A stretch of DNA of 64,000 bases from a virus, in IMG/VR virus record IMGVR_UViG_3300037247_001239, positions 10,579 through 74,578 of that record; one strand, given 5' to 3'. Shown here piece by piece: positions 348 to 60,339 of this stretch. A model generated the notes under the pieces. That model was not told where the DNA came from. It worked only from the letters and a program-made list of their open reading frames with translations, and did no database searches. Positions within the stretch are counted from its first letter, which is position 1. Every line of letters starts with the position of its first letter. Both the position numbers and the translations under genes were made by a program.

Positions 348-673
348 TGCCAGCCGCCTGGTCGACTCAAATACCGCCTCACCGAAGAGGCAGGGCCCAT
401 CCCGGAGGTCCGAGGGGGTCGCAACCTTTGATGCTACTCTGGTTGCCGGTCGCAAGACCGAGAGGCATCGCGCCAGGCCCGCCATCCGGCTGGAGACGTT
501 CCAGGAGCCCGCGACAACTGGCAAGAACCGAAGCTAGAGCGGAAAGTCCGCTTGGGCACCCGCATACGAAAGCGGCTCGGCATTCGGGTTGTCGCACCCA
601 TTGCCCACGACCAGGGCAGTACGTGGAAGGCTAGCGATGTAGCCACGTCAAAAATCCAGAACGGAGGCCCTGG
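348..673 (+). ncRNA. candidate structured ncRNA or long leader upstream of HNH gene
   Basis: Nested helices 350-356/487-493, 357-361/473-477, 376-380/387-391, 447-451/456-460 (GCAA loop), 511-518/588-595, 538-543/547-552, 602-606/614-618, 621-626/643-648; no credible ORF. Confidence 0.5.
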
Positions 674-685
674 GGGAATTGCAGC

Positions 686-3800: not shown

Positions 3801-3828
3801 TTGACACGTTTGGGATTGCCGATATGAT
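3801..3828 (+). promoter_or_regulatory. sigma70-type early promoter TTGACA-N16-TATGAT
   Basis: Perfect -35 and near-consensus -10, ahead of the cassette-like gene run. Confidence 0.75.
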
Positions 3829-3868
3829 ATCGGGCGAGTCGAAACCGAAACCCTATCGGAGTTGAATC

Positions 3869-4153
3869 ATGAAAATGCGAAGCGAAGACTTTGCAGCAAT
3901 GCGGGAGGCAATCGCAAATAGCTTCCCCCGGGAGTGCAAGACTCCAGGAAAGCGGCTGACCTTTGCGGAGTGGCGTTTGGAGTATTGTGCACGCGGACTA
4001 TCGGAGGAACGGTTCCGGTGGGATTGCTTGCACGCCTCCGGCTACAATACCCGCCCCCTCTATGCCTACCTGCATGACAGCCACATCGACACAGCGCTTA
4101 GGCGCATCATCGTACTACTAGCCAACGCCCCTCCTGCACTCCTGGAGGTCTAA
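3869..4153 (+). CDS. hypothetical early protein
   Basis: Motif-led start; RFRWD..YL.DSHIDTALR resembles a phage family. Confidence 0.75.
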   Translation: MKMRSEDFAAMREAIANSFPRECKTPGKRLTFAEWRLEYCARGLSEERFRWDCLHASGYNTRPLYAYLHDSHIDTALRRIIVLLANAPPALLEV

Positions 4154-4154
4154 C

Positions 4155-4364
4155 ATGCGTCGCCCCGCCCTCATCCCGTCCGCTTTGCGATCCGCCCGAG
4201 AAGACCGGGACTGGTCGCAGCAAACCTTAGCTGTGAAGCTCGGCATCACGGTGACCACGGTTTGCAGGTGGGAAACGGGCGTGAACGTGCCGAACCTACC
4301 CACCCTTCGCCGGGTTGCGAAGGCGCTCGGCGTTACCCTCAGTACCCTAGTCGAGGAGAGTTGA
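4155..4364 (+). CDS. XRE/Cro-family HTH regulator
   Basis: WSQQTLAVKLGITVTTVCRWETGVNVP. Confidence 0.9.
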   Translation: MRRPALIPSALRSAREDRDWSQQTLAVKLGITVTTVCRWETGVNVPNLPTLRRVAKALGVTLSTLVEES

Positions 4365-4368
4365 GACG

Positions 4369-4563
4369 ATGCCAGAATTACTGAAACTGTATGGCGGCGA
4401 GCCTGCCCCGCACACGGTTGAAAAATGCCCCAATACCGGCAAGCTCCTGTTCTGGCCACAATTGGACGGGCCGCACGGTGATGCCCACACCCTGTACTGC
4501 CAGCTCTGTGGCGTAGCCGTTCGGAAGGAGCCGTATCCAGAAGAGACGCGCACTCACCCCTAA
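4369..4563 (+). CDS. hypothetical protein
   Basis: Motif-led start. Confidence 0.7.
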   Translation: MPELLKLYGGEPAPHTVEKCPNTGKLLFWPQLDGPHGDAHTLYCQLCGVAVRKEPYPEETRTHP

Positions 4564-4638
4564 CCCCCCCCACTACAATGCCCCCGCGCTGCAGTAACAG
4601 CCGGGGGCGTGGCCCTCAACTGAGAAGGAGTTGAAAGC

Positions 4639-4824
4639 ATGTCTACTCTACCTTCCCCGCCCGCTCTGGGCAAGCCAATCCTCTGTTGCTGGTGTGATCG
4701 GCCCGCCAGCGCCGCCCCCGTGATCTATGCGGGCATGTCCCACCCGACGTGTCTCGACCACTCAATTCGCTACAACACCCTCCCGCCGCGGCCTCATAAG
4801 AACAGCAAAGGGGGTGCGGTATGA
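4639..4824 (+). CDS. small Zn-finger-like protein
   Basis: CCWC..CLDH; motif-led start. Confidence 0.65.
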   Translation: MSTLPSPPALGKPILCCWCDRPASAAPVIYAGMSHPTCLDHSIRYNTLPPRPHKNSKGGAV

Positions 4825-5384
4825 GAAGCATACGCCTAGAACCCCGCGACGTACCGGCCGTATTCCGCCGAGCTTTCCCGGAGTACAGGGGCCGCACGTT
4901 TGCAGTCGAGACCCGCAACGAAGTGGAGTTCTCCGACAACTACTGGTCCGGCGGTACAAAATACACCTATCGCGGCCTAGACCTGGCAACCGGGGAGGCG
5001 CACGACCCGTTGATCGGCAACGAATCGGGTGGCCACCCCTGCCAGCCAGCATCCCCTACCGTCAAGCTAGAACCGGGGAAAGCCATAGTCTGCCACAAGA
5101 TATTCTGCGGGAAGGATCACGGGCTCGTGTTCTATATCCACCCCGATAACCTCAGCAAACTGCTGCCGGCCCCGGCCGAACTACCGAACGACCAGCGGGC
5201 AGTATTGGAGGTGATTTGCAGTATCAAGGGCGGGCAGTATCGACGGGATGAATTCGACCGGGCCGGGCTGGGCGAGTACTCCGCCGAGCATCCCGGGATT
5301 GTGGCCCTGGCATCGGCCGGGCTGGTCAAGATCAACCGGGCGGGAGCCGTATCGGTCACCGTTGCCGGTCGCAACGCACGTTGA
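4821..5384 (+). CDS. hypothetical phage protein
   Basis: 187 aa, ATGA coupling. Confidence 0.75.
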   Translation: MRSIRLEPRDVPAVFRRAFPEYRGRTFAVETRNEVEFSDNYWSGGTKYTYRGLDLATGEAHDPLIGNESGGHPCQPASPTVKLEPGKAIVCHKIFCGKDHGLVFYIHPDNLSKLLPAPAELPNDQRAVLEVICSIKGGQYRRDEFDRAGLGEYSAEHPGIVALASAGLVKINRAGAVSVTVAGRNAR

Positions 5385-5471
5385 CGACCCCGCCCCCGCG
5401 CTCCCTGGCAACAGGGAGCCGGCGGGCTGGCCGTTGGAGCCAGCGTAACCCTAGCAAAGGAGAGTGAGACG

Positions 5472-5750
5472 ATGAGAACCATTCCCATGAGCCGCAAGCA
5501 TCAGGGACTGCATATCGAAGCACCCGGTTGCATCGTGAACATCCGGAACCTAAACGACAGTGAGGGCCAGCCTATAACCTTCATTGACGTAAACGCTGAC
5601 GGCGACCGATATTCGGGCGAGCCTGAATGGTGGTGTATAGATGCTGGTGCGATTCTGGGAGTCCGAGGGATCGGCATCCGCATCGTCCAAGGCATTGACA
5701 AGCCAACGGAAAGATACGTTCCACTAGACGAACGAGTACCCATACCCTAA
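5472..5750 (+). CDS. hypothetical protein
   Basis: Motif-led start. Confidence 0.7.
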   Translation: MRTIPMSRKHQGLHIEAPGCIVNIRNLNDSEGQPITFIDVNADGDRYSGEPEWWCIDAGAILGVRGIGIRIVQGIDKPTERYVPLDERVPIP

Positions 5751-5837
5751 ATACCCTTGACAACCCCCGGCCCCCGCGCCTCCCGGTGGCGGCGCGGCGC
5801 CGGTAGTTGTACCCTGACCCTAGAAGGAGTTGAGACT

Positions 5838-6059
5838 ATGAACATGCGAGATTTCATCCGCCAGAACCGGGCCGAGATTGACGTGGCGATCGACCGCGCG
5901 GTGGGCTTTGTCCCGCGCACGGCAAGCTGCGATTGCCCAAAGTCGGGCACAGACCACCACCACCAGCCAGAACAACGCAACGATAACGAGCGGCGGCAAT
6001 GGATATTGAACGATGAAGGTTTCTATAACTGGGCGCGGCGTGAGGGCGTCCCAATCTAG
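5838..6059 (+). CDS. hypothetical protein
   Basis: ATG at 5838 after GGAGTTGAGAC; ERRQWILNDEGFYNW. Confidence 0.75.
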   Translation: MNMRDFIRQNRAEIDVAIDRAVGFVPRTASCDCPKSGTDHHHQPEQRNDNERRQWILNDEGFYNWARREGVPI

Positions 6060-6108
6060 CCGCCCCGCCTCCCGGTAGTTGTTACCCTAACAGACTGGAG
6101 TTGAGACT

Positions 6109-6747
6109 ATGAACCTACCCGAAAAGTACCGCCCGCGCACCTGGCAGGATGTGGTGGGCCAAGAGAAGCTGGTCGCAGACCTTCAGCGGATCCGCGACAA
6201 CGGCGGGCTGGGCGGCAACGCCTACTGGCTCAGCGGCAAGAGCGGGACCGGCAAGACCACGATCGGCCGGCTGATTGCGGCAGAGGTGGCCGACGACTAT
6301 TGCACAGACTATCTCCACGCCCGGGAGTTGACCCCCGCGCTGTTGCGCGACATTGACCGGGCTATGGCTTACCGCGGCATTGGCCAGAAGGGCGGCCGGG
6401 CGTGGGTGGTTGACGAATGCCACCTGTTGACGGATCGGCAGGTGGGGGCGTTGTTGGACCTGACCGAACCGATACCGGATCATATCGTGTGGGTCTTCAC
6501 CACAACTACGGCGGGCCAGCTCAAATTCGACTGGCTTGACGACGCGGGCCCGCTCTTGTCCCGTTGCATCCGCCCCAAGATGGCCACAAACCTCGCCCAA
6601 CCTTTTGCCGAACGAGCACGGGAGATCGCCGTCTCCGAGGGCCTGGACGGGCGGCCGATCAGCTACTATGTGGAGCGCGTCAAGCAGAACCGAAACAACC
6701 TGCGCGCCGTGTTACAGGAAATCCAGCAGGGGAGAATGCGACCGTAG
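6109..6747 (+). CDS. clamp-loader-clade AAA+ ATPase (DnaX/RFC-like, short)
   Basis: EKYRP..WQDVVGQ, GKSGTGKTT, VVDECH, PLLSRC. Confidence 0.85.
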   Translation: MNLPEKYRPRTWQDVVGQEKLVADLQRIRDNGGLGGNAYWLSGKSGTGKTTIGRLIAAEVADDYCTDYLHARELTPALLRDIDRAMAYRGIGQKGGRAWVVDECHLLTDRQVGALLDLTEPIPDHIVWVFTTTTAGQLKFDWLDDAGPLLSRCIRPKMATNLAQPFAERAREIAVSEGLDGRPISYYVERVKQNRNNLRAVLQEIQQGRMRP

Positions 6748-6778
6748 CCCCGCCCGCAAGGGCACAACAAAAGGTGAG

Positions 6779-7141
6779 ATGATGGGAACCGACGAACCGC
6801 GCGACTTCATGCTGATGACGGCCCAGGAGCTAGCAGAGTACAGCGGCAAGGTCTATCAGGCCCGCTGCCAAGTGCGTGGGCGTGGCGGCAAGCTGCACCC
6901 CATCGACATCGAGGCGCCGACCGCAGAGCTACGAGAGGCTGGCGTAGCCAACACTCAGCGCGTCGGTCGCCTAGAGTCGCGCGAGGATACGACATACTGG
7001 CGCCAGCAGACCGGCCCCAAGTGGGCTCAGGCGTTCGGCGGGATCTCTGGCCGCTGTGCCACAAACCCCGAGGACGTACCCGACGAGATGATGACCGCCG
7101 AGACGTTTTGGCGGGATCATTCAAACAGCAACAGCGGATAG
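6779..7141 (+). CDS. hypothetical protein
   Basis: AAGGTGAG before ATG. Confidence 0.6.
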   Translation: MMGTDEPRDFMLMTAQELAEYSGKVYQARCQVRGRGGKLHPIDIEAPTAELREAGVANTQRVGRLESREDTTYWRQQTGPKWAQAFGGISGRCATNPEDVPDEMMTAETFWRDHSNSNSG

Positions 7142-7189
7142 CCATCCCGCCCAGCGCTTCGCCGGGCATAACCCCCAAGAGGTGAAAAG

Positions 7190-7465
7190 ATGTACGAATA
7201 CACTCCCGGACCGTGGGAAACCGTTGCCGGGCCAACCGATGGCGACCTCGCAGTCTGTGAGCCAGAGGGAGGCGACGAAATTGCTATAGTCACTAACGGA
7301 TCAATTTGTGACCGTGATTTAATCGCCGCCGCGCCTGAGTTGCTGGAAGCGTGCCAAGCTGCACTCCCAGCATTATCAGCCCATGAGCAAACGGGCTGCG
7401 ATTGTCCTGATAGCGATGCTGCCCGACTACTCCGCGCAGCCATTGCCAAAGTCGAGAACGCCTAA
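7190..7465 (+). CDS. phage 'HTPGPW..IAAAPELL' family protein
   Basis: YTPGPW..DLIAAAPELLEAC. Confidence 0.8.
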   Translation: MYEYTPGPWETVAGPTDGDLAVCEPEGGDEIAIVTNGSICDRDLIAAAPELLEACQAALPALSAHEQTGCDCPDSDAARLLRAAIAKVENA

Positions 7466-7556
7466 CACCCCGCCAGCGCCTCGCCGGGGTCGCGTCCGGC
7501 GGCGGGCCTTGCGTTTCGAGTTTACCATCACTACCCTAATGTGAGGAGTTGAGACC

Positions 7557-8021
7557 ATGAGTACCGTCGAAGACGTGTTCGGGCCCGTTATCAGCCGCTA
7601 CACCCGCCGAGAGGCGATCGAGGACGGGATTCTCGTACAGCTCAGCGGACCGGGCTGCACCATGGACCAGGAAATACAGGACATGGTGGCTGAGGCCGGC
7701 TTCAAGTGGCCTATGGCCATGACTACCACGGCATTCGTCGAGGTCGTAACGCCTATCGAGGGCGAGGGCAACGAGAAGCTGGCCCCCTGCCAGGACATCA
7801 TGGGCCGGCTGTGGGATGTGCTCTGGATGCTCAAGTGTGCCATCCGCTCGGCCCCAGGCGGAACCGAACTCCGCTTCGCCCTGTCTGTGGTGCCCAACGT
7901 GCCCGAGAGCTACAGCAAGGACCACCCGCCCAAGCCGAGGCAGGTGACGCTCAAACTCGTGTCGGGCCCGGGCGACAACGCAGAGCCCGTGCTGACGATC
8001 ATGCTGCCGGATGAGGACTGA
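7557..8021 (+). CDS. DUF6573-like protein
   Basis: YTRREAIEDG..GRLWDVLWM..GPGD..EPVLTIMLPDED. Confidence 0.8.
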   Translation: MSTVEDVFGPVISRYTRREAIEDGILVQLSGPGCTMDQEIQDMVAEAGFKWPMAMTTTAFVEVVTPIEGEGNEKLAPCQDIMGRLWDVLWMLKCAIRSAPGGTELRFALSVVPNVPESYSKDHPPKPRQVTLKLVSGPGDNAEPVLTIMLPDED

Positions 8022-8077
8022 ACCGCCCCGGCCCCGAGTGCTCCCGCTGGGGAGCACGTAACCCTGGAGTTGAGACG

Positions 8078-8218
8078 ATGGACCCAGTAGAACTCCTGGC
8101 AAACGCTGAGCACAACCTTGGCAGTGCCCTCAAAGTGCGACTATGGTCGTTTGTAGAAGTCGCCCGGGAGCAGTTGCAGGCCGCCATTAAGGAGCTTGAC
8201 GTTGACGAGAACGACTAA
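8078..8218 (+). CDS. 46-aa protein not in ORF track
   Basis: MDPVELLANAEHNLGSALKVRLWSFVEVAREQLQAAIKELDVDEND after a perfect start motif. Confidence 0.7.
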   Translation: MDPVELLANAEHNLGSALKVRLWSFVEVAREQLQAAIKELDVDEND

Positions 8219-8263
8219 CCGGGCCGCCGGGTTGCAGGCGGTGAACCAAATGGAGGTGAGACG

Positions 8264-8551
8264 ATGGAACGCAAAACACCCTACATTGCCGCCCTGGCAA
8301 TACACGTCGACAAGCTCCCGCCGGCCTTGCGGGCCGAGTTGCGCGATGCAAAGTGCAGTGATTGCAGTCGCCCCGTCCTGGTGTACGGTCCGAGTTACGA
8401 TCGGGTGGAATCGGCAGTAGGGGCACTCGACCCCGTGTGTGAGGAGTGCATGGAAACACGGTGGGCAGGAATGGAAGAGATTGCAGTCGTCTCGACTGTC
8501 ACCCCGAGAGTTGCGCGGGAGTTTGCGAAAGCAGAAGCAGAGCGGAATTGA
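8264..8551 (+). CDS. Zn-finger-like hypothetical protein
   Basis: CSDC..CEEC; GGAGGTGAGAC start. Confidence 0.7.
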   Translation: MERKTPYIAALAIHVDKLPPALRAELRDAKCSDCSRPVLVYGPSYDRVESAVGALDPVCEECMETRWAGMEEIAVVSTVTPRVAREFAKAEAERN

Positions 8552-8649
8552 CGAGTAGTGCCCCCGCGCCGCGCAACCCGCCGCCGGCTGTTGAACATGG
8601 AACGGCACGGGCACAAGAAAGGCTACGTTACCACTGAAAGGAGCTGACC

Positions 8650-9066
8650 ATGTCTGAAGGCAAATTGCGTTTTGGCGACGAAAATCCAAGCGTTAAGAAA
8701 CTTAGAGAACTTCTCGGAGTCTCTGATTTCGAGGAAGTCACAGTCGTTACACCACAATTCGAGCGTCCAGACGGCAAGGAGATTACGTTTCGGCCGGAGA
8801 AATCCGCAGAGTTCTTTGACAAGCTCCAGAAGGCTCCCGATGATTTGCTGATTGATATCGGCATGGGTCGATGGAATGACCGCCTTCTGCTGTTTCCCCA
8901 TGAGTGGTACGACTGCATCCCAGAGGGTTATATTGTCAGAGACATCAACGAGGAAGACGAGCCGTTCAAGCACGGGGAGACAGATAACGATATCCGGTTT
9001 GGTTGTCTGGCTTATGGTTTTGCACGCGAACCTAGCAATCCACTGGACACAAACCGGGTTACGTGA
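8650..9066 (+). CDS. hypothetical protein
   Basis: AAGGAG RBS; LFP.EWY..IPEG..DIRFGCLAYG. Confidence 0.75.
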   Translation: MSEGKLRFGDENPSVKKLRELLGVSDFEEVTVVTPQFERPDGKEITFRPEKSAEFFDKLQKAPDDLLIDIGMGRWNDRLLLFPHEWYDCIPEGYIVRDINEEDEPFKHGETDNDIRFGCLAYGFAREPSNPLDTNRVT

Positions 9067-9084
9067 CCTGCGAAAGGAGATGAG

Positions 9085-9366
9085 ATGAGTGATAGATTAC
9101 CAGAGGTATGGAAGTTCCGGCTCAACATTGATGATCGGTCAGAACTTCAGATGCCAGTCGGAGCCAAGGTACTGCACATTGCGGAACAGCAAGGCGTTGC
9201 GCGCCTTTGGGCTCTAGTTGATCCAGATGCACCGTTAGAGTTCCGTAAATTCCGCCTTGCCGGTACGGGGCACCCAATCCAGAATGGCTTCGCGCTGAAG
9301 CATCACGGCAGCTTCTTGATGAGAGGAGACAAGCTTGTCTTCCATTTGTTTGAGGATGTGTCGTAA
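9085..9366 (+). CDS. DUF7352-like protein
   Basis: WKF..MP.GAKVL..Q..LWALVD..GTGHP..VFHLFE. Confidence 0.75.
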   Translation: MSDRLPEVWKFRLNIDDRSELQMPVGAKVLHIAEQQGVARLWALVDPDAPLEFRKFRLAGTGHPIQNGFALKHHGSFLMRGDKLVFHLFEDVS

Positions 9367-9389
9367 GGTATTCAGCGAAAGGAGATGAG

Positions 9390-9620
9390 ATGAGCAACGA
9401 AAGCCCCGAGATCCGCACCACGGTGGAACAAGAGGCCGTCAAACTGTTGACTCAGTGCCTGCACGACGCGAGCGACGGCACTCTCCGATACCAGCACCCC
9501 CAGGCTAATGCAAGGATAGAACGTACTGTCCGCCTGATAATCGACGCTGCGGTAGCCCAAGCGAAAGTCCCCGCAGTCTTCCCGATTGAAGCCAAACAAC
9601 CCCCGGGCAAGGGCGCTTAG
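9390..9620 (+). CDS. hypothetical protein, last gene of + arm
   Basis: AAGGAG RBS. Confidence 0.6.
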   Translation: MSNESPEIRTTVEQEAVKLLTQCLHDASDGTLRYQHPQANARIERTVRLIIDAAVAQAKVPAVFPIEAKQPPGKGA

Positions 9621-9628
9621 GGTCGCCT

Positions 9629-9661
9629 GCCGGTCGACGGTCTCAACTCCCGTCGGCCGGC
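9629..9661 (+). ncRNA. 12-bp hairpin with loop TCTCAACTC antisense to the early start motif; may also act as terminator
   Basis: GCCGGTCGACGG/CCGTCGGCCGGC stem (one U-G); 9640-9650 GTCTCAACTCC is the reverse complement of GGAGTTGAGAC. Confidence 0.55.
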
Positions 9662-9673
9662 CGCCCGGGCTTA

Positions 9674-10417
9674 CTAACCCTGCACCAGTTCAGGCACCCC
9701 CTCGCTGGGTGCGGACTGCGGTGTACCCCCGTATAGGGCCAGAACTTGGCGAAGGTACGCACGATGTTGGTCTCCCAGCCACCACTGACCTCGGGCCCAC
9801 TCCTGGCCGAAGTGCCGCAGAGTGTGCTGGGCGTCCCACGTCGAGCCAGGGTGGGCAAACCGCACGTAGACGGCCGGATCGTTGGCCAGCATCGTGAAGC
9901 CCGGCCAGTTGCCCAGGAACACGCTGTCCTCTTCCTTGCCCTGGTGAGGGTAACGGGCGTCGGTCTTGGGGTGCAGGATGCTACCGTGGATCCCCGTGTT
10001 GTCGAAGAACCGCACGGCCGCGGTGTCGCTGCCCCAGTCGTAGCACAACTGATACTGAAGGAGCACGGGAGACCCGGGGTTCTGCTTCCATGCCTCGACC
10101 TGGAGGGCCATGCGGTCTTCGCGGTAGTGATCGTCATCATCCCACTGGGTCACCACGTTCCCATGAGCCTTGTCCAGCCCGATGTTACGAAGCTCCCCGA
10201 GCGACTTCTTACTCTGGACTGCCACCACGCGGACGTTGTCCGTAGAGAAGGGCAGCAGATCAAAGCATCCATCGGCGACGATGAGCAGTTCCCGGCAGTC
10301 TGCCGGATACGTCTGGCGGTGAAAACAGTCAATCGCCGCGGGCAGGAACTTGGCCACTCGGCCCTCTTCTTTTCCCGTGACGCAAACGGCGGTAACGAAC
10401 GGCGGCTGGTTTTTCAT
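9674..10417 (-). CDS. glycosyltransferase family 2
   Basis: RELLIVADG, SLGELRN, QWDDDDHY, EEDSVF. Confidence 0.85.
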   Translation of the reverse strand: MKNQPPFVTAVCVTGKEEGRVAKFLPAAIDCFHRQTYPADCRELLIVADGCFDLLPFSTDNVRVVAVQSKKSLGELRNIGLDKAHGNVVTQWDDDDHYREDRMALQVEAWKQNPGSPVLLQYQLCYDWGSDTAAVRFFDNTGIHGSILHPKTDARYPHQGKEEDSVFLGNWPGFTMLANDPAVYVRFAHPGSTWDAQHTLRHFGQEWARGQWWLGDQHRAYLRQVLALYGGTPQSAPSEGVPELVQG

Positions 10418-10797
10418 TCCAAACTCCTTAGAGTGATACAGTTTTGGGACGTGATAATCTCCGCTTTGTCTCCAGCCTGGCGATACTGGCCGAGCGACCT
10501 GCGAGCTCTCCGCATTGTGGCACAGTATTCGGTGCGAGTGAACCCCCTAGGGTTCTCGCTGAACATATGGACGCTGAGCTTCGCCGGAGACAAATGGCTT
10601 TGTGTTGGGGATGGTTCAGCCGACGCTTTATTGGATGCCACAAGCTCCACGCCTGGCGACATGAGCTTGGCCAATTCGTGGAGCGACACCATCACCGGCG
10701 CTTTCTTTTGCGGGCGCGCAAATGCGGCGCCGGGCAACACGCCCACGCTTCCCACAGCAACCCCCATGCACTCACGACGACTGATTCGACTTTCCAT
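10414..10797 (-). CDS. hypothetical protein with twin-arginine-like leader
   Basis: MESRISRRECMGVAVGSVG; AGGAAAGGA upstream. Confidence 0.55.
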   Translation of the reverse strand: MESRISRRECMGVAVGSVGVLPGAAFARPQKKAPVMVSLHELAKLMSPGVELVASNKASAEPSPTQSHLSPAKLSVHMFSENPRGFTRTEYCATMRRARRSLGQYRQAGDKAEIITSQNCITLRSLE

Positions 10798-10827
10798 CAC
10801 GATTTCCTTTCCTGTTGAGGGTTTCCA

Positions 10828-11886
10828 ATGCAGCCCATTGTACTGAAGAAGGGGGCAACTGCATACGGCTATGTCAGGGTAAGTACCGATCGCCAGGAAA
10901 ACTCGCCCCAAGCCCAGGCCAAGATACTCAACGACTGGGCAGCCGAGCAAGGCTACCCCATCGAACTGGCCTACGACACGGGCGTGTCGGCCGCCAAACT
11001 GGAATTCGAGAAACGGCCCGCTGGGCGAGAATTACTGCGACGGATCCAGCCCGGCGACGTGATAGCGGCGGTCCGGCTCGACCGCTTGTTTCGTCGCGGG
11101 CAAGAGATTGCCCTGTTGCGCCGTCTGGCCCAGCAGGACATCCGGATAGTCACCGTCGTCGACAGCCTGCCCGACACCAGCACACCTGTTGGCAAATACA
11201 TCCAGGGCAATTTCGTGCTGATGCACGAACTGGAGGCCGCCATCATTGGGGCCCGCATCCGGGAGACCATGGCCTGGCGGAAATCCATGGGCCTGCCCGT
11301 CAACGGGGCGGGCAAGTACGGCCACAAGATCGTGCCCGGCGAGAAGGGGCAGGTGTTCGAGGTCGACGAGGAGGAGATGCAACTGATCCGCCAGGCATCC
11401 GAGCGGAGACTTGCCGGCGAATCGTGCCAAGACATTGCCACAGACTTTGGTTGGGACCGTTGCCGGGTAGCACGGGTGACGTTGCAGTATTGGCTGGCCA
11501 ACGACATCGAACCACCCGAACAATCGTTCCGAAAACGGCCCACCCCAGAAGAAGAAGAGCAACGTCGCCTAGAGCGAATAACCTGGGCGCAGGACAAGCC
11601 GGTCTGGATCATCCACGGCCAGAGGTGCAAGCGGCTGGTCTATGACGACGTAGACCAAGACTGCCCCGACTGCGGCGTGAGCCAGGGCATGTACCACGTC
11701 CCCGGGTGTAGCCAGGAAGAATGTCCGCTCTGCAAGGGCCAGGCCGCCACCTGCAACTGCAAACCACGGCTACCACACAAGAGGCCCAAACGGAAAGAGA
11801 AGCCCGTCAAGCGGAAGGCAAAGCCTACTTGGAAGGACGCGGGGTGGATTGACTCTCCCGAGCCGCCTTCCGACGTTGCTGGATAA
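10828..11886 (+). CDS. small serine recombinase (resolvase/invertase) with C-terminal Cys-rich domain
   Basis: YGYVRVSTDRQ, RLDRLFR, E..IIGARIRE; CPDC..H..GC..EECPLC..CNC. Confidence 0.9.
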   Translation: MQPIVLKKGATAYGYVRVSTDRQENSPQAQAKILNDWAAEQGYPIELAYDTGVSAAKLEFEKRPAGRELLRRIQPGDVIAAVRLDRLFRRGQEIALLRRLAQQDIRIVTVVDSLPDTSTPVGKYIQGNFVLMHELEAAIIGARIRETMAWRKSMGLPVNGAGKYGHKIVPGEKGQVFEVDEEEMQLIRQASERRLAGESCQDIATDFGWDRCRVARVTLQYWLANDIEPPEQSFRKRPTPEEEEQRRLERITWAQDKPVWIIHGQRCKRLVYDDVDQDCPDCGVSQGMYHVPGCSQEECPLCKGQAATCNCKPRLPHKRPKRKEKPVKRKAKPTWKDAGWIDSPEPPSDVAG

Positions 11887-14800
11887 GCAGGTTCAGAATT
11901 GACAGGTCCTCGACTAGATCCGGGTGGGCATCCTTCTGGTCCTTCGGAAGGTAAAGGCGAGTAAACTCCCTGATCTCGGGGTGCGCCTCCAGGAGTTCCA
12001 TCTGGGCCCGCTCCATTTCTCGGAGCTTCTGAGCTGGCAAGTCAACCGTGTGAAATTTGAGCCCCGTAGTCAAGTCAGCCAAGCGAGCCGAACGACTCTT
12101 TCGGGTATCCAGAGCCCTCCTGGTCTCGAAAATCTGCCGAGAGAAAGGGCTGCGGGTTAGCATGAAGTCTACCTCGGGTTGCCCAGTGATCGGCCGCAGA
12201 TCCTTGAGCTTGCGCCCAGTCCACATCTGGCGGCCAGCAAACGCCTCCACGGGAGACAGCAGCAGGGGGTGTATGTCCGAAGCGAACCGGCGGGCCGTTG
12301 CACCCATCGCGGGACGGCCACCAGTAAACTGAAAGCGGCTTAGGTCTTCTAGGGGTAGTCCAGCCTGAGTTAGGAAGGTGGCCTTTTCGGCAGGACCACC
12401 CCAGCGAACTGCCATCCGTTCTCGCATCCACGGAGGCAGATACCCACCCTCGCCCGACTCTCGTTGAATACCCGCCAGCAACCGCGTCGTCTGGGCAGCA
12501 CGCCCACCAGGCCGGCTGATAACCAACTCAATCTGGCGGGGAATGTTGTTGCGCGCCCATCGCCAGAAGGGGATCATTCGGGTCATCACCTGCCGCTCGA
12601 ACTTTGACGCCTGGCCGTAGTCGAATTGGGTACGAAACGTGATGTGTCTCGCCTGTGCCGGACTGTAGCCCCGCTTTCGCAGCCGGTCGTAAGGCCCGGC
12701 CCGTAACAGAAACTCGATGAACCCGTATGCTTTCTCTCCCATTGCAGCCGGGATGTTCTGCCGTCCGGTCACAACCTCCCCGCTGGGCAGCCGCACGCCC
12801 CGCACTCCTCGACTGGCTGTGGGGTCGAGCATCCGCCACGCTGAACCGGCCTTACGTTCTGCGGGCAAGTTTTGGTAGGGCCTAAAGATCCCACCCAAGA
12901 AACCCCGGGGGACCGCCCCCAATTCTTCAGTGACCTCGGCACCGGCCACCTGGATCGAACCGGCCCCCCGTAGTAGGTCGCTGTCAAGAACTTCGTCGAT
13001 GTGAGTCAGGGGCGTCTTACCGCCGCTATGAACGTGCTTTGCCGCATCCCCAATACCGCCCAGTACATCCTTGAGGCCCATCACGCCCTCGGACCACCAC
13101 TGCCAGGTACCGCCAGCCAGGTTGCGGGTATGGAAGGCTGGGGCCATGACCAGCCAGCCCTTATACATCGAGTTGATCTTGTCGTAGGTCTCGCCTATCT
13201 TGCCAATGTTTAACGGACGCATCGACTCGACATAAGCCTCCATGACCCGTTCGGTGCGAGCATCGGTCATCAAGTCGTTGAGTTTGGGTATCGCCTCGTC
13301 TAGCGGACCGTCGAACTCACCGGGATACTTGCGTTTGGCGAAGTTCAGCAGGCCCTCTTCAGTGAAGCCGGCGTTTTGCCAGACCTCTCGCAAACTCTTG
13401 CCGTCAGTGATCGCCTCCCCTGCCTTCCACACCACCTTCTCGCCCGCCAGGAAGTGGTGCGCCGCCAGTACGGTACCCAGCGATCGGGAGATGTGTGTAA
13501 CGTAGTCGCCCAGATCGTCGACCATCCGACGATCGAAAAGTCCGGTCTTGAGGATCTCCGGGGGCAGCCCGGCAAAATAGTCCACCACCCGCCCCAGCCG
13601 TGGTCCCAGTTCCTTGCCGCCGATCGTCTCCCCGACTCGCCAGTTGTCTCCCTGTTTAGCCAAGTCCTCGGGCGATAGGCCAGCCCGCATCAACTCTGGT
13701 TCGATATGCTTGCTCCAAAGGTACGCCTGTTGCATCTCCCGGACATTCAGCTTCTCAGTAGGGATGCCTCTGGAATCAAGAACGTCGCGCAAGCCATCTT
13801 GGAACGCCTTCGTACCCCGCACGTTCTGGCTAGCGGTAATCCATTGGTCTTGGGCTGTTCGGTTCACCGCCGCCGTGCGACCAGGCCACTCACGCAAGAG
13901 CGGGTTCCGGGGGGAGGCAAAGGGGAAGTAATGTCCAAACAGCTTTTCGTAGTCTTTGGCAGCCTGGGCGTCCTTCCGTTGGGCCGCCAGCGAACTGGCA
14001 CGCCGGGGATGGTAGCCCTGCATGAACATATCGTCCAGGTTTTTGACGTTGGCCCCCAGTTGCTTCAGCATCCCATACTGGCCGTCAAGGATCTCCATGT
14101 TGGCGTTGAGGTACGTGTGAAACCTCTGCGAGAACTCGCTGACCTGGGCCTCCCATGCCGCTGCGGGAGTGTTCTGCGGGGTGCCCAAATACTTGAGGAT
14201 GTCCTCGTGTAATACCTGCATCCCATCAGCCTGCCGCAACAACTCACCGCCCTTTTCCTGGGCGTCTCGGGCAAACACCTCGAAACCCACTTGGTCCCCG
14301 GCCGCCGCCCGGCTCTTAGCCAGATCATCCCACATCTTCGTCAATGACGCGGTTTCGGCCCGCATTGCCGGCATAACGTCCAGGGACAAGTCCGCCAGTT
14401 GGGCGGAGTGGGAGAACATCGCGTCTTTTGCCATCTGGGCGGCACCCACCGGCGTACCCCATGCCTTGTGGCTGAAGGCGTAGCGAGCCCAGGGCACCAC
14501 CGAGAGCGGCGAGTACCACAGCTTTTCCAGGGTCTTCGCCGACAACTCGCCTTTACCTAGCGTGGCAAAGGGGGCCTTTCCAGGCAGCCCGAAGCCCAAC
14601 AGGGCTCGCTCACCGCTGCGGATCTCGCCGGCCATTTCGGCGGCCGTGCGACCCATCACCCGCTGATATTGTCTTCCGCCCAGACTGCCCACCGTCTTTC
14701 CAGTGCCACGAACCTTTTCCAGTTGGGCCAGTCGCTCTTGAAACTGAGGAAGGGCCTTCTTTAGCGTGCCAGACATTTTGATGCCACGAAACGCCTCCAG

Positions 14801-59785: not shown

Positions 59786-60339
59786 CGCTTCCTCCTATCC
59801 CGGTCAACCAACTCGCGCACCGTCCCACTGGTCAATCGGGACTGAAGCCGGTGGTCGTACATTCGCCAAATCTCCGTTGGCTTGTCGTTGCTGACGTAGA
59901 TCGCCGGCCGGCACTCTCGCCAGTCCACGAACTGCTTCACAGCAGAGTAGTCAAACTCGGCGGCGTTGCCGGGCCGTGGCAGCCCTAGTTCGTCTAACAC
60001 AGCCAGATCGGTTCGCAGTATGCCCCATGGCGGATCTCTGGCGATGATGTCGCTCATCACGCCGTCAACCGTCCAATAGCGGGCGTAGGCTGTACGGTCA
60101 CAAAACGCCAGCACAGCCCGCGTCTTACCGTGGCCGACGGGACCGTGGAGGTAGAGCGGCCACGGCTTGCGCCCGATAGCCAACTCAACCAACACCCGTC
60201 GCAGGGGCTCGGCCACCATGGTCCATTCACGGGGTAGGCTCTGGGGGTAGATTCGCTTGGGTTCCGGGAGTCGCCTCAGAACGCGGATCCCTTCGTCGGG
60301 CACACGGTTGGGAATGTCGGCCGGATTGATGCGCGTCAT
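59782..60339 (-). CDS. DnaC/IstB-like helicase loader ATPase
   Basis: GPVGHGKT, VLDELG, YVSN, RLQSRL. Confidence 0.85.
   Translation of the reverse strand: MTRINPADIPNRVPDEGIRVLRRLPEPKRIYPQSLPREWTMVAEPLRRVLVELAIGRKPWPLYLHGPVGHGKTRAVLAFCDRTAYARYWTVDGVMSDIIARDPPWGILRTDLAVLDELGLPRPGNAAEFDYSAVKQFVDWRECRPAIYVSNDKPTEIWRMYDHRLQSRLTSGTVRELVDRDRRKR

Follow-up and report, generated by a model that had tools for sequence, protein, structure and literature searches.

A Y-shaped element at the end of a phage early operon, with loops complementary to the phage's own start tag, as a candidate terminator and antisense RNA

Pope et al. (2011; PMC3203893) reported start-associated sequences (SAS) and ESAS in Cluster K mycobacteriophages, leaving it open whether their partner is an RNA or a protein, and noted, without offering an explanation, a single SAS of opposite orientation away from gene starts in each of four K1 phages. 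The role of SAS was still called unknown in 2024 (PMC11373665) and in 2025 (PMC12699233). Here, we describe a start tag and an element with complementary loops in IMG/VR virus record IMGVR_UViG_3300037247_001239 (G000; 74.6 kb), of which the window, the whole stretch of 64,000 nucleotides (nt) that was analyzed, covers bases 10579 to 74578 (GC content, 61%). A 68-nt element at window positions 9602 to 9669 forms a three-way junction at the end of a block of early genes, and its two hairpin loops are complementary to two words that precede the start codons of those genes. We lean toward the reading that the + strand RNA of this element may be both the terminator of the early operon and an antisense RNA acting on the tagged ribosome-binding sites. 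Comparative tests support classifying it as antisense RNA control of ribosome-binding sites, which would be a known kind of regulation in a new variant.

A second precedent is the c4 antisense RNA of phages P1 and P7, for which PMC8546580 cites Citron and Schuster (1990, 1992). This RNA reportedly derives by cleavage from the very operon under its control. Two of its exposed stretches, both short, are said to pair with two short segments around a ribosome-binding site, and matched changes in RNA and target between P1 and P7 reportedly cause its specificity to co-vary.

Anatomy of the element and of the early-gene start tag

The + strand block at 3869 to 9620 consists of small early genes, and the − strand from 9674 onward encodes a GT2 glycosyltransferase, a 1134-amino-acid protein, a virion structural protein, and the large terminase. 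Since the early + strand block and the late − strand block meet here, the element sits at the convergence of the early and late operons, between the two converging stop codons that the first-pass annotation of this DNA had pointed out (Table 1). The region from 9585 to 9680 folds into a three-way junction (−46.1 kcal/mol, z = −3.5) made up of an outer helix (P1), a small hairpin (H1), and a large hairpin (H2). H2, with its stem of 12 base pairs (bp), had been recognized in that annotation and is present in both the minimum-free-energy fold and the centroid; the Y architecture around it had been overlooked. The single wobble pair of H2, T9634-G9656, is U·G on the + strand and C·A on the − strand, in agreement with the earlier observation.

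The H2 loop, TCTCAACTC, together with its closing pair (9640 to 9650) is the exact complement of GGAGTTGAGAC, the Shine-Dalgarno word of the early-gene start tag. The loop corresponds to the phage's own variant, GGAGUUG, rather than to the canonical GGAGGUG, as had been proposed. The H1 loop contains TTAGGGT (9617 to 9623), which is complementary to ACCCTAA, the C-rich word upstream in the tag, and which is found nowhere else on that strand of the 74.6-kb genome; the first-pass annotation had seen this complementarity as well. On the + strand the two complements keep the 5′-to-3′ order of the tag words (anti-ACCCTAA and then anti-GGAGTTGAGAC), so the element does not represent an inverted leader. 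No family reached its gathering score when the window was compared with Rfam, the C4 family included, and nothing relevant was found in 9300 to 10000 at E values up to 10. A hammerhead or other known three-way-junction RNA was ruled out on the lack of an Rfam match.

A count of GGAGTTGAGAC, which the first-pass annotation had suggested, found four exact copies on the + strand (5826, 6097, 7545, and 8066), each followed by one base and the ATG of an early gene (targets 4 to 7 in Table 1), and one copy on the − strand, that of the H2 loop, with no start codon after it. The whole record contains no more copies than the window. With one mismatch or none allowed, there were 8 sites against 1.2 expected, a number reached in 0 of 100 shuffles. 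Altered forms of the motif precede other early starts, as had also been noticed: AGAGTTGAGAC at 4357, GGAGGTGAGAC at 8252, GGAGTTGA at 3858 and 4627, and GGAG(C/A)TGA variants ahead of further early starts (8640, 9076, and 9381). The tag word is asymmetric, overlaps the Shine-Dalgarno sequence, occurs in one orientation, and marks seven to nine early + strand genes between 3858 and 8252. The late genes of the − strand lack it and carry GGAGGTGA (61955, 61729, 61153, and 43195). All eight + strand copies of the second word, ACCCTA, fall inside the early block from 3850 to 8278. Both words stand directly before the ATG in seven early genes, separated from each other by a gap of 0 to 12 nt. GC-rich hairpins (e.g., GTGCTCCCGCTGGGGAGCAC) occur at 8030 to 8060 and 8200 to 8250, just 5′ of some of the tagged starts. 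When IMG/VR was scanned for GGAGTTGAGACNATG, at least 119 contigs matched, with a single match in each contig listed, which is the level expected by chance.

Loops that co-vary with the start tag in related phages

Glycosyltransferase alignment retrieved a syntenic 30-kb metagenome contig, L126, in which the glycosyltransferase is 74% and the 1134-amino-acid protein 73% identical to that of G000, with shared genes about 70 to 75% identical at the DNA level. The same junction in L126 has the same Y shape (−53.8 kcal/mol, z = −4.9), with P1 kept and both hairpins rebuilt. A terminase-clade search added ten IMG/VR contigs (G001 to G010), all of which were examined whole. One of them, G003, is a complete 72.8-kb phage genome whose terminase is 41% identical to that of G000. 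The early genes of G003 carry (T)TCCCC...GGAGCT(AC), a tag composed of CCCC and GGAGCTAC. The tag word GGAGCT was read before loops with AGCTCC were searched for, so the G003 hairpin was a prediction. The early strand of G003 has 23 copies of AGCTCC, of which just one is placed in a hairpin loop closed by 7 bp or more; that one belongs to a Y element. Its H2 has a 12-bp stem, its P1 is GACCGC/GCGGUC followed by UUUU, and the whole folds at −47.7 to −50 kcal/mol. The G003 element occupies an intergenic gap between two early-strand genes. A GGAGCTACA-GTG start follows it after 16 nt, and GGAGCTACC-ATG, some 900 nt upstream, is a further match to it. Another strong terminator of G003 comes directly after the first small tagged gene, about 650 nt before the Y element (11242 to 11284 of the reverse complement); it has a 16-bp stem and a loop, UCUGCCUCCUC, with the canonical anti-Shine-Dalgarno core, and is followed by UUUU.

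In all three phages both loops co-vary with the phage's own two-word tag. The H2 loop GUCUCAACUCC of G000 faces the Shine-Dalgarno word GGAGTTGAGAC, and its H1 loop, UUAGGGU, faces ACCCTAA. In L126 the H2 loop is ACAACUCC and the H1 loop (U)GGGG(A), and the early genes carry TCCCCA followed after 6 to 8 nt by GGAGTTG(A/T). In G003 the H2 loop CGUGUAGCUCC faces GGAGCTACA, and the H1 loop GGGG faces (T)TCCCC. The cores of the H2 loops, CAACUCC in G000 and L126 and UAGCUCC in G003, are thus set against GGAGTTG, GGAGTTG, and GGAGCTA, and the length of the match tracks the conservation of the tag (11 nt in G000 and 7 to 8 nt in L126). Meanwhile, all three helices are rewritten with other base pairs across the phages, H2 showing three to five double changes between G000 and L126. 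The compensatory stem changes and loop co-variation that the first-pass annotation had named as checks were therefore both observed, and each element exposes a seed that is complementary to its targets and that co-varies between relatives.

Pairing energies agree with the alignment of loops and tags. Whole-element duplex energies against start regions did not discriminate, because the GC-rich stems dominate, and loop-only probes were used instead. The H2 loops gave −17.0 (G000), −11.3 (L126), and −13.8 (G003) kcal/mol on their own targets, versus −6.1 to −11.0 kcal/mol for the pairs that include G003, and the H1 loop of G000 gave −9.8 kcal/mol on its own targets versus −6.0 and −8.3 kcal/mol.

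MAFFT could not align G003 structurally and placed the G000 and L126 helices out of register, so in place of a covariance model we searched 909 kb with a descriptor (P1, H1 with a GGG loop, and H2 with a CTCC loop) and resampled controls. The descriptor matched exactly three times (G000, L126, and G003), versus 0.1 matches per Markov-resampled set; it was composed after all three elements were known and is not blind, while the RNAfold predictions are independent of it. The junctions that follow the homologue of the 1134-amino-acid protein in G001, G002, G003, and G004 have no Y element. No comparable junction was found at 20 other metagenome loci with a 30 to 44% identical glycosyltransferase, and an IMG/VR scan with a P1-loop-P1 DNA pattern returned five matches, none with the structure. 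C-rich words do occur just 5′ of the Shine-Dalgarno sequence at early-strand starts of G004 (CCCTAACCCGAGAGGAGAGATC-ATG, repeated) and G001 (TTACCCCCGATGTAGGAGATTGAGACA-ATG). These two are more distant members of the clade, so the two-word leader is clade-wide, even though these fragments show no Y element.

The relatives also bear on what the tag words are. The upstream word had been considered as a −10 promoter box (TACCCT fits TANNNT) or as part of a single-subunit RNA polymerase promoter. Both readings were dropped because L126 and G003 have TCCCCA and the gap to GGAG varies from 0 to 12 nt. The reverse motif as the start of a − strand gene was ruled out, since no start codon follows it in G000 or L126. 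We consider it most improbable that the tag words are duplex-DNA sites for a phage or host regulator, with the copy in the terminator being an inverted site. On DNA a complement is indeed just the site in the other orientation, Pope et al. 2011 (PMC3203893) considered protein binding to SAS/ESAS, and the Cluster A stoperators, as cited in that paper, are asymmetric 13-bp sites across intergenic gaps. A DNA site of this stoperator-like kind, however, would not be expected to be locked to the start codon (one base and then ATG) and to contain the Shine-Dalgarno core, as the main word does, or to tolerate a variable gap between the two words. Both words at the terminator fall exactly in the loops of helices that are kept by compensatory changes, which points to single-stranded recognition, and a DNA site leaves the bias toward G·U pairs unexplained.

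A hairpin of the same kind is found in Cluster K1. The reverse SAS of phage Anaya forms the 10-nt loop (CCUCCUAUCC) of a bipartite gene-strand hairpin in the gp96-gp97 gap, a long noncoding gap near the right genome end (record positions ~59,847 to 59,900; L219, 34848 to 34900). LastHope, CrimD, Niklas, and SgtBeansprout retain the Anaya hairpin, with outer helices that differ by compensatory substitutions (G-C to A-U, and wobble changes), and 182 Cluster K records show conservation of the region. Should gene order match, the K1 hairpin would be made late, which would fit a role in shut-off. In the accessible literature we found no publication linking the reverse SAS to a hairpin or an RNA. 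The homologous hairpin in phages of other K subclusters (Ekdilam, Amgine, Krueger, TClif, and Unicorn) has pyrimidine-rich loops (e.g., CUUCCCUUCCC), in which the match to the unchanged SAS is limited to 4 bp, 2 mismatches, and 4 bp; in Keshu and Pixie another insert occupies the hairpin position.

The first-pass annotation had preferred the + strand on the basis of one wobble pair, and the wider comparison bears this out. All five of the non-Watson-Crick pairs in the three elements (5/5) are G·U on the early (+) strand and mismatches on the other, + strand folds are 2 to 5 kcal/mol more stable than − strand folds, L126 and G003 have U-tracts on this strand, and the G003 element lies between two genes of the same strand. 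It was also suggested that the other strand might act as a decoy. In such a scheme a − strand RNA from the 3′ end of the late operon would display GGAGUUGAGAC and ACCCUAA in its loops and titrate a tag-binding factor (protein, 30S subunit, or antisense RNA) off the early messages. The − strand does fold as a Y as well (−43.6 and −45.7 kcal/mol), with both tag words fully in the loops, and in G000 and L126 the late operon runs into the element and then meets a U-rich tail on that strand. We nevertheless judge the decoy very unlikely: on the − strand all five wobble pairs become C·A or A·C mismatches, the two words stand in the opposite order to that of real leaders, the G003 element is placed between early-strand genes with its U-tract on that strand and no A-run opposite, and the equivalent hairpin of Cluster K1 is on the strand of rightward transcription.

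Termination and antisense control of early translation

The element is well supported as an intrinsic terminator and 3′-end structure, which in G000 and L126 also stops the converging late operon; this assignment is founded on position, GC-rich helices, and U-tracts. It is a GC-rich structure at the end of a transcription unit, with 24 GC-rich pairs between the converging stops, and its place is kept in L126. The + strand tail after P1 is CUUACUAA in G000, GUUUUAC in L126, and UUUUAG in G003, and it follows the closing helix of a branched structure, which is atypical for terminators. The corresponding − strand tails are UUGUUUGG (G000) and UAUUUUUGG (L126). We predict that the A-rich run just outside P1 (AGCCAAACAA on the + strand) serves as the terminator tail for the converging late operon. 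An A-run 5′ of P1 is present only in the two phages in which the late operon converges on the element. L126 keeps it as AGCCAAAAAUA; the upstream open reading frames (ORFs) of the two phages are unrelated, yet their A-run/P1 ends align. The last early ORF terminates within the H1 loop in G000 (stop codon at 9618 to 9620) and at the P1/H1 junction in L126. With the stop codon inside the element, a terminating ribosome would hold P1 and H1 open, and translation of the last gene could in this way be coupled to terminator folding.

A bidirectional intrinsic terminator alone might account for the element if loop complementarity had arisen by homogenization of the repeated leader words, or by chance plus common descent. 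The setting between converging stops, the GC-rich helices, the U-tracts that follow the element in L126 and G003, and the U-tail that the upstream A-run provides on the − strand are all what a terminator would have; terminators need no special loop sequence, and those of the actinobacterial type often lack U-tracts. We nonetheless regard a terminator without further function as unlikely. A plain terminator does not need a three-way junction, and in all three phages each of the two loops follows a tag word of its own, although every helix has been rebuilt. Since the word order is kept, the element is not what simple leader duplication or gene conversion yields. In addition, TTAGGGT is unique in the genome, and the tag of G003 sufficed to predict the loop by which its hairpin was found.

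We therefore return to the reading of the element as a terminator that doubles as an antisense RNA. The first-pass annotation had already proposed a small antisense RNA derived from the 3′ end; that proposal passed its comparative tests, but it gave too little weight to the terminator role. We postulate that the H2 loop recognizes GGAGUUGAGAC, the private Shine-Dalgarno word, by base pairing, and that the H1 loop does the same with ACCCUAA, the C-rich word 0 to 8 nt upstream. Pairing across the Shine-Dalgarno word would hide the ribosome-binding site and block binding of the 30S subunit. If the RNA accumulates, pairs with its targets in the cell, and represses them, the whole early set could be shut off or timed, either in trans through the accumulated 3′ fragment or in cis, if the element folds back onto its own long mRNA. 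Transcription reaches the regulator last, 5.8 kb downstream of the first target, and the structured 3′ fragment would persist, so that shut-off of early translation would be delayed. Late genes with GGAGGUGA mismatch the center of the H2 loop and would thus escape.

Several observations weigh against this reading. Because the word order is kept, a continuous duplex is impossible, and two separate loop contacts must be assumed. The minimum-free-energy folds pair part of the H1 complement, so that accessibility of H1 is uncertain and at best partial. The + strand tail of G000 is a poor U-tract. Only three phages have the element, and two of them, G000 and L126, are close kin, which places the statistical weight of the co-variation mainly on G003. 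No Y element was found in G001, G002, G004, G005, and G009 or in G006 to G008 and G010, whose terminases are more distant, all of these being fragments that are 26 to 70% complete. The phage is uncultured, and no RNA runs contain this DNA. Outside subcluster K1 (K5/K6; Amgine), the homologous loop is only partly complementary to an unchanged SAS, and the rule is not strict there.

Upstream of the first tagged gene, a sigma-70-like promoter (Table 1) probably marks where the early operon closed by the Y element begins, and L126 has an equivalent promoter-like site ahead of its first tagged gene. The leader of target 3 is homologous to an L126 leader, TCCCCA...GGAGTTGTGAA. The best-conserved DNA relative to L126 is at window positions 371 to 678 (86% identity over 311 nt), above any coding region. 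CheckV estimates G000 to be 66% complete, and the sole sequencing run with this DNA, a marine-sediment metagenome, is its probable source. Window positions 8000 to 12000 had no megablast match among GenBank phages. In IMG/VR, the best match to the glycosyltransferase alone was one 27% identical protein, the glycosyltransferase alignment gave only distant, nonsyntenic matches, and the DUF7352 protein gave none. The alignment of the 1134-amino-acid protein had no match either in IMG/VR or in the genome collection.

Table 1. Window coordinates of the Y-shaped element, the tagged early-gene starts, and flanking features of G000
Feature	Position	Strand	Remarks
Sigma-70-like promoter TTGACA-16-TATGAT	3801..3828	+	11/12; ahead of first tagged gene
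Target 1, ACCCTA-N2-GGAGTTGAATC-ATG	3850..3871	+	Gene 3869-4153
Target 2, ACCCTA-N7-AGAGTTGAGAC-N-ATG	4344..4371	+	Gene 4369-4563
Target 3, CCCTCA-N12-GGAGTTGAAAG-N-ATG	4609..4641	+	Gene 4639-4824
Target 4, ACCCTGACCCTA-N3-GGAGTTGAGAC-N-ATG	5811..5840	+	Gene 5838-6059
Target 5, ACCCTAA-N6-GGAGTTGAGAC-N-ATG	6084..6111	+	Gene 6109-6747, P-loop ATPase-like
Target 6, ACCCTAA-N5-GGAGTTGAGAC-N-ATG	7533..7559	+	Gene 7557-8021, DUF6573
Target 7, ACCCT-GGAGTTGAGAC-N-ATG	8061..8080	+	Gene 8078-8218
Last early ORF, 76 amino acids	9390..9620	+	No family match; TAG at 9618-9620; 3′ end overlaps P1 and H1
A-rich run	9590..9599	−	U-rich tail after the structure on the − strand (alignment, terminator scans)
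P1, 5′ strand CCCGGGC	9602..9608	+	Pairs with 9663-9669; inside last codons of ORF 9390-9620
H1, stem GGGCG/CGCCU, loop CUUAGGGU (9616-9623)	9611..9628	+	Loop complements ACCCTAA, the upstream tag word
H2, 12-bp stem 9629-9640/9650-9661, loop UCUCAACUC (9641-9649)	9629..9661	+	In minimum-free-energy fold and centroid
P1, 3′ strand GCCCGGG	9663..9669	+	Followed by weak tail CUUACUAA
GT2 glycosyltransferase (Pfam PF00535)	9674..10417	−	Last gene of converging late operon; TAG at 9674-9676

Comparison with known systems

We tentatively postulate that phages of unrelated lineages, this clade and Cluster K1 among them, use a private start tag together with one complementary-loop RNA that gates a temporal class of genes. 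If this is true, the RNA partner of SAS, a question left open by Pope et al. in 2011, would be an RNA encoded by the phage itself, and sequence alone would reveal it, as a conserved hairpin or Y element with loops that mirror the tag. The private tag, which deviates from the Shine-Dalgarno consensus of the host, would then be a translation address, and a gate built into the early terminator would give each early message of this clade a built-in expiry. Such a compact timing logic, a private ribosome-binding code read by an antisense gate in the terminator, could keep early and late translation apart with no need for a regulatory protein. Tag/anti-tag pairs would be natural orthogonal translation switches, and the rule that loops mirror tags could help to annotate the early regulons of uncultured phages. 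A test in Cluster K1 is within reach, as these phages are cultivable and engineerable and RNA-seq data exist for them.

The tag of G000 resembles SAS in being an asymmetric word with a Shine-Dalgarno core that lies a few bases before the ATG of many nonstructural genes in one orientation. In K1 phages and in G000 alike, a single reverse copy stands away from gene starts, in the loop of a hairpin. The parallel appears to be good for K1 and loose in other subclusters. The sequences themselves differ, the consensus being GGGATAGGAGCCC in Cluster K and ACCCTAA...GGAGTTGAGAC in G000, and hosts and phage lineage are unrelated, which makes the G000 system an analogue of SAS and not a member. The tag of G000 is moreover in two parts and is answered by two loops, and its Y terminator is at the end of an operon, whereas the K1 hairpin is in a long gap.

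The c4 RNA is reportedly similar in its two-segment pairing to a ribosome-binding site and in its co-varying specificity, both of which we propose for the G000 element. Unlike the latter, which would address a battery of genes, c4 is said to have one target (icd-ant, in immunity) and to lie upstream of it without being a terminator, and the G000 element has no sequence or structure match to the C4 family of Rfam.

Masking of Shine-Dalgarno sites by C-rich, anti-Shine-Dalgarno loops, with one RNA serving many targets, is known for RNAIII and RsaE of Staphylococcus aureus and for LhrC of Listeria, and OxyS regulates fhlA, a single message, by two-loop kissing. These are host RNAs that use the generic Shine-Dalgarno sequence, whereas the phage uses the private GGAGUUG (not GGAGGUG) and a second private word, so that only its own early genes would be addressed. 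DicF of prophage Qin, CpxQ, and SroC are small RNAs derived from a 3′ untranslated region or terminator that share the terminator of their mRNA. The G000 element would likewise share the mRNA terminator and be released as a stable 3′ fragment. It differs from them in the location of the seed, which in those RNAs is usually 5′ of the terminator hairpin and in G000 is formed by the terminator loops themselves, and in having its targets within the same operon.

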